DNA from: a virus
Virus record (IMG/VR): IMGVR_UViG_3300030105_001626
Span: 1 to 64,000 of that record
Length of the DNA stretch: 64,000 bases
Direction: 5' to 3' (one strand)
Shown here in pieces: positions 30,687 through 52,195 of this stretch (position 1 is its first letter; the number at the start of each line of letters is the position of its first letter). Both the position numbers and the translations under genes were made by a program. The notes below the pieces were generated by a model. It searched no databases. It was given only the letters and a program-made list of their open reading frames with translations, and had not been told where the DNA came from.

Positions 30687-31805
30687 TTATCGGATGATGT
30701 CAATCTCTTTTTCGCCTGTCCACACTTCTATATCATTTCTTAATCTATTATCTTTCTTTAGATTCTCATATCGATTACTAGCTTTCTTCTTCCACCATTC
30801 AATGATATTTTCTAGATTATGTTTTTCATAATTTTCTTTATCTTTGATTATCTTATCAGTTTTGCCTGTAACGATATCTATGAAGTTCTTGATACCATAA
30901 TTTGAGACATAGTATCTTTTCTTTTCAGTTAGATTCAATGCGTTCTTAATAGTATTCTCGAAGCCTTCATATTCTGGTGTGCCTTTAAGTGCAACTTTCG
31001 TTAATGACATTATCTTATTTGATATCTTCAATTTACGAGATGTAGCATCAGCTGGCACCAAAGGTTCGCCAATGGCAGCTTCAACATATTTCTTTAAATC
31101 TTCATATATTGGTCCATGCATCATGGGAAGAAAAGCAGAATCAGTCAAACCTTTGAATCTTATTAATGGTTTCATACCATCATACTGTGAGGACGCCTTG
31201 GAACTGCCATACAAACTTGTTGTTTCAAACATACAGGTGTTCATTTTATATTTGGCGTTAAGCCTTTCACGAACCCAATGCGAACAACATATAGCGGCCA
31301 ATAATTTGCCACCAAGATAATTAAAACCGAATGGTTGCGATGGCACAATCACAAAACCCATCATAGTGGTTTTATTAAATGCTGAAGCTCCTTCTGCAGT
31401 TTGCGAGAAGACCGACTCCAACATCTGGTTTCTTGGTTTCATATTAATTACTGGAGAACCAAGGCGTATAAACCCGACCCATTTCTGAGTATTTTTTTCT
31501 AATACAGCCAACCTTAAACATCTACCAGGAATACTGGTCATATTAGAGTGAGACGAAATCATATTGAGATAGATGTCCCATTTGTCTTGTGGTAATTCCA
31601 CAATTTCTAAATCCATATCTCTTGGATGAATACTAAAATCTGTAAATAAATCTTCTTCTGGTCCCATGCCTGGTAAAACAAAAGGCCTATCAGCCAAAGA
31701 GTTTAGTTTCTGGTCACGAATGTAGTCATCAATTCTTTCAAATCGGTCAAAGTAATCTGAATAAACTTTTGCACAATGAACTGCCTGTTCTTTGGTTAAT
31801 CTCAT
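30687..31805 (-). CDS. DUF4338/DruA-like protein (paralog 1)
   Basis: PGR.LRL.V......WVGFI.LGSP, IVPSQPFGFNYLGGKLLA, ETTSLYG, SQYDG motifs. Confidence 0.75.
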   Translation of the reverse strand: MRLTKEQAVHCAKVYSDYFDRFERIDDYIRDQKLNSLADRPFVLPGMGPEEDLFTDFSIHPRDMDLEIVELPQDKWDIYLNMISSHSNMTSIPGRCLRLAVLEKNTQKWVGFIRLGSPVINMKPRNQMLESVFSQTAEGASAFNKTTMMGFVIVPSQPFGFNYLGGKLLAAICCSHWVRERLNAKYKMNTCMFETTSLYGSSKASSQYDGMKPLIRFKGLTDSAFLPMMHGPIYEDLKKYVEAAIGEPLVPADATSRKLKISNKIMSLTKVALKGTPEYEGFENTIKNALNLTEKKRYYVSNYGIKNFIDIVTGKTDKIIKDKENYEKHNLENIIEWWKKKASNRYENLKKDNRLRNDIEVWTGEKEIDIIR

Positions 31806-47524: not shown

Positions 47525-49945
47525 TTAAGCAGCAATTTTATCAATAAATTTACTCACCAGAACTCTGTTAATAACCTTTGATTTATTCACTTTCATAAAT
47601 GCATTTTTTAATTTGTTAGCAGTTACTTTTCCTGATACTTCAACTTCTTTGTCAGCAGCATTTAAGTCTTTGCCTCCAAGAATCATGTAGAAATCATCAT
47701 AGTTTGGTTTTTGAGAAACCAATAATTTTTCTTTTCTAAATATTTTAACAATATTCTTTTGATATTCCCACTTCTCGTATCCTTTATCACTAACAGTTTG
47801 ACCATCTTCATTTACATATTGTCTGTAAATAGCATCTTTAACTTCTCTTGAATTTGGAGCAACAATATAGAAACCAATAATTTTAGAACCGGTTAACTTT
47901 TTAAACCAATCCATAGTATTAAGAAATACTTGATTTGTATTATAATGTCCTTGTTTAATTCTAGATGTAAATCTTATTGAATCATCTTTAATCACTATGT
48001 TAGTTTCTTGAGTGTCCATTCTTTTAGTATGTTCATGTGGAAAATGTTCTTCTTTAGGCATATATTTATTTTTTAAGTTATGGTCATTTGGATATTTTTG
48101 ATATTCATTCAGTCCAAAAGCAGTGTAGTCATGACAATAGTCAGCATCGCCATCATGTATAATAATTAAATTAACAATGTCAAGACCTCTAGAAGCTTTG
48201 AACTCGTTAGTATATTTACCAAGAGCAACTAATGCTTGAAGCAGTGGAGTATTTGTTAATCTTTCACTCTTTGGAGTATAAGGTCTATTCACTGAATCAT
48301 ATCTAAGATTGTGGTCATATGATTTTGCTAACAGTAACATGTTTTGAACTGCTTTAGTATACTCAGCTTTATTCATATTTGAATTAAGATATTCTCTTAA
48401 GACAACATTTTCTAATTTTAATGTACCAACTTTAGTTTCAAAAGATGAAACATCTTCAAGTCCATCTTTATAAGTTTTACTGTCAAATTCTATATCTCTA
48501 TCCATATACCAAGTTGTACTTGTATCTGAAAATGTTTGAACTGTAAATGGAATATTTACTTTTCTACAAAAACTAGAAAGTATTAATACTTGCTCAATAG
48601 CACCTTGAATATTATCCCACATTGAACCAGAATAATCTAATAACAGAATCAGTCCGTGAGATTTACCTTTAGGTATAATCATCATCTTTTTGAAAATGTC
48701 ATCATTGAATTTATAAGAAGCAAGTTTGTTAATATCTAAATCACCAGTACTTGCAGTTCTTCTCTTGCCATAAACTTTGGCAGCTTTTTTCATTTCGAAT
48801 TCTTTAGCAAGTAAAGCTACAAACTTATCATTTTTCTTTTTAAAGTCATTATAGATTTCATCTTTGTAACCTTTCTTAAAATATCCTGCAACTTCTTGGT
48901 TTTGAAAATCGTTAGATAATAATTCTTGAACTTTTTTAGCAGGAGTGATAATATTTTTCATGATAGGTTTAGGAAAGTCAAGGTAAATAAACTCTTTACT
49001 TTCTTCGTCAACTAATGAGTTCTCATTATTTCTATAATTTTCATCAGTTTCACATCTTGGTCCATCATCAACTTCTGATTCTTCGTAACCTGAATCTTTA
49101 AATCTATTTAATCCTGTAATTTCGCCATTTTCATCTGATTCTTCTGAATCATCATCATCATCGCAATTTGTTTTATTTTCATTTTCGTCTTCACCTTCTT
49201 CTGAATCATCATCTGAATTATTTTCAGAATTATTGCCGTCTTTACCGTCATCATCTTGAGAATCATCATTTTCATATTCATCATAACCTGAATCTTCATC
49301 ATCAGGGTCTTCAGAAAAGTATTGCTCTTCTTGTGACATCATCTCGTCCTGATAATCTAATTGCTCTTCAGTTGAATATGCATATATATCATTCGTAACA
49401 TTAACAACATCTGACCATGATTCTGTAGTCTTAACTCTTTCTAATAATTTAGTTTCTTCTTCATTAAAATCAAGAGCCATAGTATATTGTGATTTAGTAT
49501 AAAGATTTAGTCTATCGATAAAAGCTAATTTGTTAGCGTCTCTACCTTGAAGACCAAAGAAATCTTTTTCTCTTAAATCAGCATATGCTGTTTTGAATGA
49601 TTTTTTTAGACCTGGATATTTTCTTTGTACACGCTTCTCGATTCTAGCATCTTCAATTACATTTAAAAAGTTTTTATAATTCTTACCTTTATTATTAATT
49701 GTAACTGCATCATGCCATCCTTCAGCAGGTGTATACAGAGCATGGCCAACTTCATGTCCACAAAGTAAATCATAAGTTGTACCTATCATATCAGTCCAGA
49801 TTGGAAGATATAATATTCTGTTTTTAGGGTCGAACTTTGCAGTAGAAATCTTCTGATGTTCGATTGTTAGATTTTCATTAGCCATCAGTTTTGCTAACTG
49901 AGACTTCTGTTCTTGTAATAAATTGTCTTCTTTTTTCACTATCAT
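47525..49945 (-). CDS. HExxH metallopeptidase-like domain, acidic linker and vWA domain (CobT-like partner of the AAA ATPase)
   Basis: GHEVGHAL, NVIEDARIE, MIDAS LLDYSGSM, TPL, HDGD; start moved downstream of the promoter. Confidence 0.85.
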   Translation of the reverse strand: MIVKKEDNLLQEQKSQLAKLMANENLTIEHQKISTAKFDPKNRILYLPIWTDMIGTTYDLLCGHEVGHALYTPAEGWHDAVTINNKGKNYKNFLNVIEDARIEKRVQRKYPGLKKSFKTAYADLREKDFFGLQGRDANKLAFIDRLNLYTKSQYTMALDFNEEETKLLERVKTTESWSDVVNVTNDIYAYSTEEQLDYQDEMMSQEEQYFSEDPDDEDSGYDEYENDDSQDDDGKDGNNSENNSDDDSEEGEDENENKTNCDDDDDSEESDENGEITGLNRFKDSGYEESEVDDGPRCETDENYRNNENSLVDEESKEFIYLDFPKPIMKNIITPAKKVQELLSNDFQNQEVAGYFKKGYKDEIYNDFKKKNDKFVALLAKEFEMKKAAKVYGKRRTASTGDLDINKLASYKFNDDIFKKMMIIPKGKSHGLILLLDYSGSMWDNIQGAIEQVLILSSFCRKVNIPFTVQTFSDTSTTWYMDRDIEFDSKTYKDGLEDVSSFETKVGTLKLENVVLREYLNSNMNKAEYTKAVQNMLLLAKSYDHNLRYDSVNRPYTPKSERLTNTPLLQALVALGKYTNEFKASRGLDIVNLIIIHDGDADYCHDYTAFGLNEYQKYPNDHNLKNKYMPKEEHFPHEHTKRMDTQETNIVIKDDSIRFTSRIKQGHYNTNQVFLNTMDWFKKLTGSKIIGFYIVAPNSREVKDAIYRQYVNEDGQTVSDKGYEKWEYQKNIVKIFRKEKLLVSQKPNYDDFYMILGGKDLNAADKEVEVSGKVTANKLKNAFMKVNKSKVINRVLVSKFIDKIAA

Positions 49946-49952
49946 GTAATCC

Positions 49953-49992
49953 ATTATACAGATTTCCATGCAAAAGTCAAGCACTTTCGAGC
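49953..49992 (-). promoter_or_regulatory. sigma70-type early promoter
   Basis: TTGACT-N16-TATAAT; ATG 7 nt after the -10 box. Confidence 0.75.
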
Positions 49993-50043
49993 TTTATTTT
50001 AGCAATTTAATGATAAGTTTTACTTATTAAAGAACTCAATAAG

Positions 50044-50112
50044 TGGAGCGGAGATTAGGATTCGCACCTAAAGAATTGACTGGAAGCCATTTCTGTTCTA
50101 CTACTTCTCCGC
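50044..50112 (-). tRNA. atypical D-armless tRNA-Gly(TCC)-like RNA (downstream copy)
   Basis: Acceptor GCGGAGA/TCTCCGC followed by TCCA; T-arm TTAGG-TGCGAAT-CCTAA; loop CTTCCAG on an extended stem; 69 nt. Confidence 0.75.
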
Positions 50113-50118
50113 AAAAAG

Positions 50119-50187
50119 TGGAGCGGTGTGTCAGATTCGCACTGACTGATTAAACGGGAAGAATAATCTGTTCTACTAACCCACCGC
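50119..50187 (-). tRNA. atypical D-armless tRNA-Gly(TCC)-like RNA (upstream copy)
   Basis: Acceptor GCGGTG/CACCGC followed by TCCA; T-arm GTCAG-TGCGAAT-CTGAC; CTTCCCG loop within a GATTA/TAATC stem; 69 nt. Confidence 0.72.
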
Positions 50188-50199
50188 AATTAAGTAACC

Positions 50200-50227
50200 A
50201 TTATACATGATTGACATCACAAGTCAA
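50200..50227 (-). promoter_or_regulatory. sigma70-type promoter for the tRNA-like pair
   Basis: TTGACT-N16-TATAAT, ending 12 nt before the first RNA. Confidence 0.75.
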
Positions 50228-50242
50228 GCATTATATCCATTA

Positions 50243-51523
50243 TTACCGACCAACTTGGTCTAGATAATAATCTTTAGTTTCTTCCCACGATAACACCGTT
50301 AAGTTATCATAGAATAATGTTTCTGTAGAAACTCGGTCTGATTCTTTTAAATTTCTAATTCTCTTTGTTGCATATCTTTCTTTCCATAAAGTTACCAGAG
50401 CTTCAGTCGAAGTATCAAATGATTTTACTAATTTGTCTTCAGTAATATCACCTCTTAAGAACTCGGCTGAATTATTGTATAAAGGAGAAAAGTATATACC
50501 TCTGGCATGAGCTGATTGTGTTAATGCTTTATCCATTTTCATTTGTGAATATGCAAATGATAGTGACCTATTCTTATGGTCTCTTTTGTGTGGTTGCCCA
50601 CTTGGTTTCTTTGCAACATACCATTCAAAGTATTTTCTGGTATGATTTTTCTTTATCCAATCATTAATTTTATTTCTAGTCACTCTTCTTGGTTCAAACT
50701 TAACTGAACCTGCAGTGAATCCCATTTTCTTCCAGTGTTTAAGTCTATCGTATTGTGATAGTCCATGAAGTTTCGCTTTACCATATAAGGATGTAGTTGT
50801 AACGCCTATTAGCGTGTCACCATACAATTCTTTCCATAGTTTCTGTATCTTATCATCTAAACATAATAATGCTAATAACTTACCACCTGTGTAGTTGTAA
50901 CCTAAAGGTTGTAAAGGAACAATCGTAGAACCAATCGCTGTATGATTAATCATTGAACCTTGTGTTTTAAGTTCTCTACTCCATCCAATAAAATTATCTC
51001 TAGGCGTTAAGTCTAGAAAGTCTGAAGAAATACAAATAACACCAAGATATTTTTTAGTTGGTTTATCTCTGACAATGAAGTTAAGATTACGACCAATATT
51101 AGAATTGTTTTTCATTGTAGATGAGAATGTTCTAATTACATTCCATAGTTCTGGCAAGTCTTCTTGTTTGTTTGCATATATGAGTTCAGGTTCTATATTC
51201 ATAAACTCATCTAAGTCTTGTGGATTCCAAACATTATTTTTAACTTCTTCAATAGCTATTCTTTGTTTATCGTTGGCTAGAACTTTCTTCTCGCCTTCCC
51301 ATAAATCATTAACCATAGTGAATGGATATTTTTCTTGTACTTCACACCACTTTTGATACAATGTATATTCTTTTACGTCCATCTTTGAAACAAATTCAAG
51401 GTCTGTAATCGTCTCTTGTTTAATTTGTTCAAAGTCAGGGTCATCCATATCTTCTACAGGATTAGCCTCTGACCATTTTTCCCACTGAACTTCTACATCA
51501 TCTTTTGTATAATCAATTGCCAT
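50243..51523 (-). CDS. DUF4338/DruA-like protein (paralog 2)
   Basis: GRNLNFIVRD...YLGVICISS, PRD.FIGW, IVPLQPLGYNYTGGKLLA, TTTSLYG, SQYDRL motifs. Confidence 0.8.
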   Translation of the reverse strand: MAIDYTKDDVEVQWEKWSEANPVEDMDDPDFEQIKQETITDLEFVSKMDVKEYTLYQKWCEVQEKYPFTMVNDLWEGEKKVLANDKQRIAIEEVKNNVWNPQDLDEFMNIEPELIYANKQEDLPELWNVIRTFSSTMKNNSNIGRNLNFIVRDKPTKKYLGVICISSDFLDLTPRDNFIGWSRELKTQGSMINHTAIGSTIVPLQPLGYNYTGGKLLALLCLDDKIQKLWKELYGDTLIGVTTTSLYGKAKLHGLSQYDRLKHWKKMGFTAGSVKFEPRRVTRNKINDWIKKNHTRKYFEWYVAKKPSGQPHKRDHKNRSLSFAYSQMKMDKALTQSAHARGIYFSPLYNNSAEFLRGDITEDKLVKSFDTSTEALVTLWKERYATKRIRNLKESDRVSTETLFYDNLTVLSWEETKDYYLDQVGR

Positions 51524-52195
51524 TTACATTTCGTTCCATTTAAATTTGTTTTTCTGTTTTCTTGTTTCAGTCTTCATTAGTTTATTCTGCTTCTTCTTTG
51601 CTAAGGATAACACAAGATTGGACACCTGTGAGGTAAACTTTATTCCGTTCATATGGTCTAATTCGTGTTGAAAACATCGTGCTAACATTCCATCTAAATG
51701 TTTATTTACAGTCTCGCCATTTTCATCTTGATATTCAACGTCAATCTCTTCGTATCTCTTTATAGAAAGAATTAAACCAGGATAAGATAAACAACCTTCA
51801 TCTAGCTTAATATCATTTTGGCCAAATGCAATCAATTTAGGATTAACACAAACCATCTCTTCACCTAGATGTGTCATTATAAACATTCTTGTTGACACAT
51901 TACATTGATTAGCTGATAATCCAATACCACCAAACTTTCTCATGGTCATTTTCATTCTCGCTATGAGTGTTCTCATGTTAGCATTAGGTAAAGCTTCATC
52001 ATAAACAGGCATTGTTTCACTTAACAATGGAAGTTGGTCGTCATATAAATCTAATGGTTCTTCTCTGAGTTTTTTTATCTCTTCAGTTGGGTTTTCTTTT
52101 GTTTCTGGTCCAAGGCCTTCTGCTGTGCTATAGTTAAATGTCATGCCTGGTTCAGTAACTACTGTTGTATCATCAAATTGTTTAATATCACTCAT
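51524..52195 (-). CDS. def: peptide deformylase
   Basis: GIGLSANQ, EGCLS, QHELDH motifs. Confidence 0.95.
   Translation of the reverse strand: MSDIKQFDDTTVVTEPGMTFNYSTAEGLGPETKENPTEEIKKLREEPLDLYDDQLPLLSETMPVYDEALPNANMRTLIARMKMTMRKFGGIGLSANQCNVSTRMFIMTHLGEEMVCVNPKLIAFGQNDIKLDEGCLSYPGLILSIKRYEEIDVEYQDENGETVNKHLDGMLARCFQHELDHMNGIKFTSQVSNLVLSLAKKKQNKLMKTETRKQKNKFKWNEM

Follow-up and report, generated by a model that had tools for sequence, protein, structure and literature searches.

Conserved miniature tRNA-Gly-like RNAs beside a DruA-family GNAT-fold gene in T4-like pelagimyophages, candidate non-decoding glycyl donors

Results

Layout of the locus

The window analyzed here is the whole 64,000-nt stretch presented above, positions 1 to 64,000 of IMG/VR record IMGVR_UViG_3300030105_001626, and it belongs to a contig of 77.6 kb with 34% G+C that is ~44% complete (CheckV). 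The gene content is that of a T4-like pelagimyophage, with SbcCD-like gp46/47, UvsW, a gp41-like helicase and UvsX, and further genes of the contig encode a dNMP kinase, a peptide deformylase, a CobS-like AAA protein and a phrog_459 'peptidase'. The closest cultured relatives are the Pelagibacter phages HTVC008M and Mosig. The sequence is present in marine metatranscriptome and metagenome runs, and the locus had no blastn match among 50,697 phage records. The features that bear on the analysis are as follows.

50243..51523, minus strand: DruA-family (DUF4338, PF14236) gene, 426 aa, the proposed partner enzyme; Pfam 80.3 bits
50200..50227, minus strand: sigma70-like promoter of the RNA pair, TTGACT-16 nt-TATAAT; 11/12 consensus matches, with the promoter-then-RNA layout also found in relatives
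50119..50187, minus strand: unit 1, 69-nt mini tRNA-Gly-like RNA; covariance model 69.2 bits
50113..50118, minus strand: spacer CTTTTT, 6 nt, between the units; no promoter between units
50044..50112, minus strand: unit 2, 69-nt mini tRNA-Gly-like RNA; covariance model 62.4 bits
49953..49980, minus strand: next sigma70-like promoter, for the phrog_459 'peptidase' gene; conserved in relatives and the 3' limit of the RNA cassette
30687..31805, minus strand: second, shorter DruA-family paralog, 372 aa; PF14236 40.3 bits

The first-pass annotation had proposed two 69-nt units 6 nt apart with a promoter of their own, and both the arrangement (50187-50119 and 50112-50044, minus strand) and the promoter (at 50227..50200) are borne out. 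The -10 hexamer ends 12 nt 5' of G1 of unit 1, so the transcript should have a short 5' leader, and the lack of a promoter between the units implies a dimeric precursor. No intrinsic terminator was found at the RNA cassette.

Several observations concern the neighboring genes. The 819-aa 'peptidase' open reading frame has a listed GTG start (49984) that overlaps a sigma70-like promoter (window 49943-49984, minus strand), and an in-frame ATG lies at 49945, only 7 nt past the -10 hexamer, so the message may be leaderless or nearly so. The peptide deformylase gene (51524-52195, minus strand) lies directly 5' of the DruA gene within the DNA-metabolism block, an arrangement already reported for pelagimyophages. 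In Mosig, the corresponding DNA-metabolism block holds two 2OG-Fe(II) oxygenase-type genes.

The two units have a reduced tRNA-like fold

Both units start with GCGG and end with CCGC-T-CCA. In unit 1, the acceptor stem GCGGTGG/ACACCGC contains a G7.A66 mismatch and is followed by a mini D stem of 3 bp (GTT/AAC), a central hairpin of 7 positions with the loop CTTCCCG, and the T arm GTCAG-TGCGAAT-CTGAC, before U73 and CCA; position 37 is a C, and two U.U pairs adjoin the central loop. Unit 2 has a 7-bp acceptor stem (GCGGAGA/TCTCCGC), a D stem of only 2 bp, a central hairpin with the loop CTTCCAG, and the T arm TTAGG-TGCGAAT-CCTAA, again with U73 and CCA. The T loop TGCGAAT, shared by both, has G where tRNAs have U55, and neither unit has G18G19; the central stem counts 7 positions, not 5. 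In the window, both units carry a 7-nt central loop with U33 and UCC.

Most of the fold that had been drawn at first reading stands. The acceptor pairs, U73, the encoded CCA, the centered UCC and the 5-bp T stem hold in both units, the elongated anticodon arm corresponds to the long central hairpin with its 7 positions, and the variable loop is indeed almost absent, with 1-3 nt between the central hairpin and the T stem. The claim that there is no D stem has to be revised, because relatives show a covarying 3-bp mini D stem, of which unit 1 forms 3 bp and unit 2 forms 2 bp. The units fold with minimum free energies of -19.2 kcal/mol (z about -2.4) and -20.3 kcal/mol (z about -2.5), and a covariance model built from the relatives finds just two matches in the whole 77.6-kb contig, with E values of ~1e-13 and 5e-12.

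Standard tRNA detection gives little signal here. ARAGORN in standard mode calls no tRNA in the contig, in line with the low or absent score anticipated for it; in mitochondrial mode it reports unit 2 as a D-loop tRNA-Gly(tcc), and with lowered thresholds it makes 33 calls that are mostly spurious and uninformative. RF00005, whose gathering threshold is 29 bits, has no match at E<=10 within 49800-50400 and none at E<=1 over the whole contig, with control genomes all matching. At gathering and relaxed thresholds, Rfam returned insignificant matches alone (RAGATH-17, E 4; wcaG, 0.95; SAM-II, 3.3).

Covariation defines an RNA family

An exact-pattern scan of IMG/VR yielded 13 syntenic loci, and a search with the upstream protein yielded 138 loci, of which 80 were kept (63-100% identity). 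Nearly all of these protein-first loci have one or two units just 3' of the protein gene, each behind its own promoter. The covariance model that had been suggested as a check was built and searched (model R1) and found 75 units, 32 of them distinct, in 81 sources; an RNA-first pattern scan raises the total to 51 distinct sequences on more than 140 related phage contigs. Two chance pattern matches inside coding sequence (L010 and L108) were rejected.

On the model-fitted alignment, 86.4% of cells are paired, versus 71.3% in shuffles and 38-49% when the structure is slid by 1-3 columns; the alignment was fitted to the structure and is hence biased in its favor, although the margin over the slid controls is large. 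Changes on both sides occur in 12 of 20 pairs, and the covariation score was reached by none of 500 shuffles. In the 7-position acceptor stem, pairs 1-4 are invariant and pairs 5-7 covary, with 6:67 often G.A. The 3-bp mini D stem covaries among GUC/GAC, GUU/AAC and GUA/UAC around a loop of 3-5 nt; the central hairpin of 5-8 bp is followed by 1-3 linker nucleotides; and in the T arm (5 bp and a 7-nt loop) four stem pairs covary. Members are 63-69 nt long, the common type being 63 nt.

A further pair links the two loops. The last D-loop nucleotide covaries with the third T-loop nucleotide, as G-C in 10 sequences, A-U in 37, U-A in 1 and G.U in 1. In the predicted fold this pair matches the 19:56 elbow pair of tRNA, so the L-shape is probably kept. 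Compensatory changes had been taken at the outset as a sign of selected structure, and covariation over 32 to 51 distinct sequences shows that the structure is under selection. By this comparative evidence, the RNA family is predicted to form a conserved miniature cloverleaf.

The RNA is linked to the upstream DruA-like gene

Starting from the RNA, a DruA-like gene lies upstream on the same strand in 72 of the 72 true loci that have at least 1 kb of upstream flank. The gap between the two is usually 24-69 nt, and in seven loci it is 0.5-1.4 kb through an inserted gene. The downstream 'peptidase' gene is equally constant (61 of 61 loci), so much of this pattern can be put down to a gene order inherited from a common ancestor, and the adjacency may be plain synteny. 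Starting from the protein, the RNA is found in 66 of 79 usable loci, and the 13 loci that have none are the most divergent. A search of the DruA-downstream regions of HTVC008M, Mosig and the 13 divergent contigs with R1, filters off, found no unit; Mosig has one DruA gene and no tRNA-Gly at all. The link between RNA and DruA gene is strong, not absolute, which is expected if host Gly-tRNA can substitute.

In assembled contigs of four marine metatranscriptomes, the units are covered at a depth similar to that of the flanking genes, although such contigs cannot prove transcripts or their ends. One contig spans 49927-50181 and then runs into adapter sequence, and so extends from the units into the peptidase gene. 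Two other contigs stop at 50184. These ends, which come from different runs, lie 3-6 nt from the 5' end of unit 1.

The upstream gene encodes a predicted GNAT-fold protein

The 426-aa protein scores 80.3 bits against PF14236, for which the cut-off is 27, and has 944 relatives in a representative library. Its AlphaFold2 model (69 sequences) has a pLDDT of 95.5 and shows a GNAT fold at residues ~105-370. When 48,161 PDB representatives were scanned with this model, the top match was Mom of phage Mu (8bv8; Z 9.5, rmsd 3.8, 168 residues aligned), followed by many acetyl-CoA GNATs at Z 8-9 and by FemA and TacT3 at 7.7. The value for Mom is barely above those of the acetyl-CoA GNATs, which counts against the glycyl-donor reading discussed below. 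In the viral structure library BFVD, family members come first, giant-virus proteins included, and Mom is the first named protein from outside the family.

Sequence and profile comparisons show no similarity to Mom. There is no PF25680 match at E<=10, and hhalign gives probabilities of 1.3% versus Mu Mom and 0.3% versus a 32-member Mom alignment. Foldseek against PDB returned only weak GNAT matches (E>=0.01), a search of PDB chains with the DruA alignment returned nothing meaningful, and NCBIfam returned nothing. One GenBank cyanophage record annotates a DruA-like homologue as 'methylcarbamoylase mom', and DruA-like folds in cyanophages have been noted by one preprint. As far as the models go, DruA and Mom resemble each other in fold and context, not as members of one family. 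Foldseek against BFVD also revealed clear DruA-like domains in Faunusvirus, Yasminevirus and Dasosvirus (E 9e-20 to 5e-10), and some of the giant-virus domains lie in proteins of more than 1100 aa.

Directly after strand 4, where GNATs bind the pyrophosphate of CoA, the DruA family has a glycine-rich loop, Q205-P206-x-G208...G213-G214-K215, which makes an acyl-CoA donor possible. Should the DruA-like enzyme use acyl-CoA, it might act on the RNA in the manner of TacT-type enzymes, or the two might have nothing to do with each other. Folded by themselves, the N-terminal 110 residues reach a pLDDT of 55, too poor for a fold search; we suspect a winged-helix domain in this part of the protein.

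The 372-aa paralog belongs to PHROG 19197, which is common to the cyanophage homologues, and its gene adjoins those for a DnaB-like helicase and UvsX. The neighbors of the 426-aa gene encode peptide deformylase, SbcCD-like proteins, the 'peptidase' and the CobS-like AAA protein. Both paralogs are found in blocks of DNA replication and repair genes, and related genomes, including HTVC008M, have one long and one short DruA paralog. RNA units and DruA paralogs do not go together in number: genomes with two paralogs have one unit.

A graded series leads from tRNA-Gly to the mini forms

Among the ordinary tRNAs of related phages, R1 cross-matches tRNA-Gly genes only (UCC and GCC in a 214-kb genome, and ACC in HTVC008M). 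The forms can be arranged in a graded series. At one end, the tRNA-Gly(ACC) of HTVC008M scores 49.5 bits on RF00005; next come a 76-nt form with a normal CUUCCAA loop and an odd D arm and T loop, and a 71-nt form with a UCCC tetraloop that scores 31.9 bits; at the other end stand the 63-69-nt mini forms, which have no RF00005 match. We hypothesize, at about even odds and jointly with the glycyl-donor reading discussed below, that the units are non-decoding descendants of phage tRNA-Gly.

The two units of the window are 68% identical to each other. The nearest relative of unit 2 (74%) is the second unit of a clade whose DruA protein is ~71% identical to that of the window, and the nearest relatives of unit 1 (78-81%) are units of another clade. 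Since each unit is nearest to units of other clades, the duplication is old, with both copies kept. A single unit is common among the relatives, which shows that a tandem pair is not required.

Some further RNAs and spacers were observed in the relatives. HTVC008M has just one tRNA, a non-canonical tRNA-Gly (91140-91213; L097:1501-1574) whose anticodon is ACC, whose T loop reads AGCGUUA and whose CCA is encoded; it lies directly after cobS, 4 kb downstream of the DruA gene; HTVC008M has been listed with 0 tRNAs on the basis of tRNAscan-SE (PMC7029224). One contig with no unit adjoining DruA has two tRNA-Gly-like RNAs elsewhere (L101:1501-1571 and L103:1501-1576, both minus strand). One of these belongs to a tRNA cluster and carries a UCCC tetraloop, the other combines a normal CUUCCAA loop with an AGCGUUA T loop, and ARAGORN called neither. 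The spacer 5' of the peptidase gene in HTVC008M and Mosig (L095:4125-4160 and L096:4664-4710), which follows the DruA gene or a MazG gene that comes after DruA, is without a unit. These two spacers share a (TA)GTAGAACA motif, then a GCTGTGCGA...CGCA hairpin reminiscent of the window units in their D region and T loop, which may be either a remnant or another kind of small RNA.

Glycine-loading marks are invariant and the decoding loop is not

Across the 32 distinct sequences, the invariant elements are G1-C72, C2-G71, G3-C70, G4-C69, U73, CCA, G53-C61 and two cytosines of the central loop. Glycine identity in bacteria, as established for E. coli and T. thermophilus, consists of U73, G1-C72, C2-G71, C35 and C36 (PMC9976931). 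The assignment of the acceptor pairs, U73 and C35/C36 to bacterial glycine identity, made from the window alone, agrees with that work, and these positions prove invariant in the family.

The two loop cytosines are invariant, yet the geometry of the loop around them varies. The central loop ranges from 4 to 7 nt, and most family members have 4 nt; the common 63-nt type has the tetraloops CCCC, CCCA or UCCC, and longer loops read CUCCCCG, CUUCCCG, CUUCCAG, CGUCCAG or UGUCCAA. Strains with a DruA protein 98% identical to that of the window have G in place of U33 in unit 2. This variation in loop size makes decoding unlikely. The pattern of conservation suggests that selection preserves the marks for glycine loading, not decoding, although a tetraloop may present the two cytosines poorly to GlyRS.

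Two roles had been offered in the first-pass annotation, a non-ribosomal purpose and a decoy for anticodon nucleases. The first gains from the finding that the central loop of most relatives has shrunk to a tetraloop. The decoy is not supported, because it needs a faithful anticodon stem-loop, and here the anticodon loop is not kept: neither its size nor its sequence is conserved apart from CC.

Discussion

A glycyl donor model

We propose that the units are a non-decoding glycyl donor pair for the upstream DruA-family GNAT enzyme, and to this reading, taken together with descent from phage tRNA-Gly, we assign a probability of about 0.5. In this model, a dimer would be transcribed from the strong early-type promoter, trimmed at the 5' end by RNase P and at the 3' end back to the encoded CCA, and would keep a tRNA-like elbow. 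Host GlyRS would glycylate the units via the conserved acceptor end and the two loop cytosines. The charged units would then be poorly used by EF-Tu and the ribosome because they have no decodable loop, no G18G19 or U55, and an altered arm geometry. As private carriers, they would supply activated glycine to a transfer reaction outside the ribosome, and would deliver the glycine to the DruA-family GNAT. We infer the processing, the glycylation and the use by the GNAT enzyme, and by analogy with known systems the DruA-family GNAT-fold protein is the most probable catalyst. The location of the paralogs in DNA replication and repair blocks, together with the precedent of Mom, would make DNA a reasonable acceptor of the glycine, but this choice is only a guess.

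Known systems provide partial parallels. As reported in 2026, Mom of phage Mu takes glycine from Gly-tRNAGly and attaches it to N6 of adenine in dsDNA, yielding N6-carbamoylmethyl-dA; it is selective for tRNA-Gly and probably reads its acceptor end (PMC13219725). Mom is thus a phage GNAT fold that works with glycyl-tRNA-Gly, and it is the top solved neighbor of the DruA-like protein. However, Mom (PF25680) has 241 aa with an HTH-like insertion, whereas the DruA-like protein, a PF14236 member of 426 aa, has additional portions at both its N and C termini. Mom also uses the host tRNA, whereas the phage here brings its own mimic. Type I Druantia DruA is related in that the protein adjoining the RNA pair passes the PF14236 threshold, but the gene here lies in a phage DNA-metabolism block, and that of Druantia in a bacterial druA-E defence operon.

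The non-proteogenic tRNA-Gly species of S. aureus (NP1-NP3) feed FmhB, FemA and FemB, are dedicated to cell-wall synthesis and escape EF-Tu, and FmhB prefers the dedicated species via their D and T regions (PMC7826273). They share with our proposal the use of dedicated glycine carriers with normal GlyRS charging, altered D and T regions and a partner of GNAT-type fold. In the phage family, D and T loops are conserved within each subtype, like the D and T regions of the staphylococcal species. However, the latter are full-size and cellular, have a normal anticodon loop and are restricted to staphylococci, whereas the RNAs here measure 63-69 nt, have a D stem of 2-3 bp and a long central hairpin that often ends in a tetraloop, and are phage-encoded and, in the window, tandem. 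By this comparison, the staphylococcal RNAs appear to be the closest functional analogy, an analogue and not a fellow member.

Other explanations

The invariant acceptor end could also be read as bait. The units would then be a sponge or decoy that occupies factors targeting the acceptor end of (Gly-)tRNA-Gly, such as a TacT-type GNAT toxin, and would spare host tRNA-Gly. TacT acetylates Gly-tRNAGly and recognizes it by U73 and G71, a combination unique to tRNA-Gly (PMC9976931), and both are invariant in the family. A strong early-type promoter with high-copy expression would suit such a role, and TacT3 is among the structural neighbors of the DruA-like protein (Z 7.7), which shows merely that GNATs can bind this end. 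We consider a sponge unlikely because it leaves the strict linkage to a phage GNAT gene unexplained, as well as the two loop cytosines and the elbow pair, and we know of no TacT-type toxin in the presumed SAR11-type hosts. Still more doubtful is a processing or regulatory element, either punctuation for RNase P and RNase Z or a titrator of GlyRS or another tRNA-binding protein. The cassette always lies between two genes, just 5' of the next promoter, and the metatranscriptome contig ends near the 5' end of unit 1 are a weak hint of a cut. Punctuation, however, needs only a tRNA shape, which leaves the invariant GCGG/CCGC-U-CCA and the loop cytosines unexplained while the other stems have turned over, and the cassette's own promoter also counts against it.

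That the units are a genuine but odd decoding tRNA-Gly(UCC), supplementing the host tRNA pool, is suggested by the 7-nt loops with U33 and UCC in the window and by the mitochondrial-mode ARAGORN call on unit 2. Mitochondrial tRNA-Ser and tRNA-Pyl likewise have a short D loop, a lengthened anticodon stem and a very short variable region, have lost G18G19 and T54-Psi55, and still decode with 7-nt anticodon loops. The RNA family resembles them in being compact with a reduced D arm, but the 7-nt loop is not kept here, most members having 4 nt. In unit 1, position 37 is C and the loop is bordered by two U.U pairs, near-identical strains have G33 in unit 2, neither RF00005 nor standard ARAGORN matches, and the lack of G18G19 and U55 and the 7-position central stem add to this, so that we regard decoding as very improbable. 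Standard tRNA finders miss the units, as they might miss decaying tRNA pseudogenes or a chance repeat, but we give almost no credence to decay: it is refuted by the covariation, with compensatory changes in every helix and in a tertiary pair, and both units have been kept since before the clades, with DruA ~71% identical, diverged.

Implications

A full-text search of the literature found neither such RNAs nor a function for DruA described. If the glycyl donor reading is true, the absence of tRNA calls by tRNA finders in these genomes would be explained, and the units would illustrate to what extent a tRNA can be reduced and yet, presumably, be charged. The principle of dedicated glycine carriers would be extended to abundant marine and freshwater T4-like phages, and there would be a first functional lead for DruA/DUF4338, the Druantia defence protein included. 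More tentatively, and at well below even odds, the RNA and the gene may form a self-contained module, in which DruA-family GNATs would be aminoacyl-tRNA-dependent transferases that move glycine from a phage mini tRNA-Gly to DNA or to some other macromolecule. Type I Druantia DruA would in that case likewise be a modifier that depends on tRNA, and the homologues in giant viruses might work alike.
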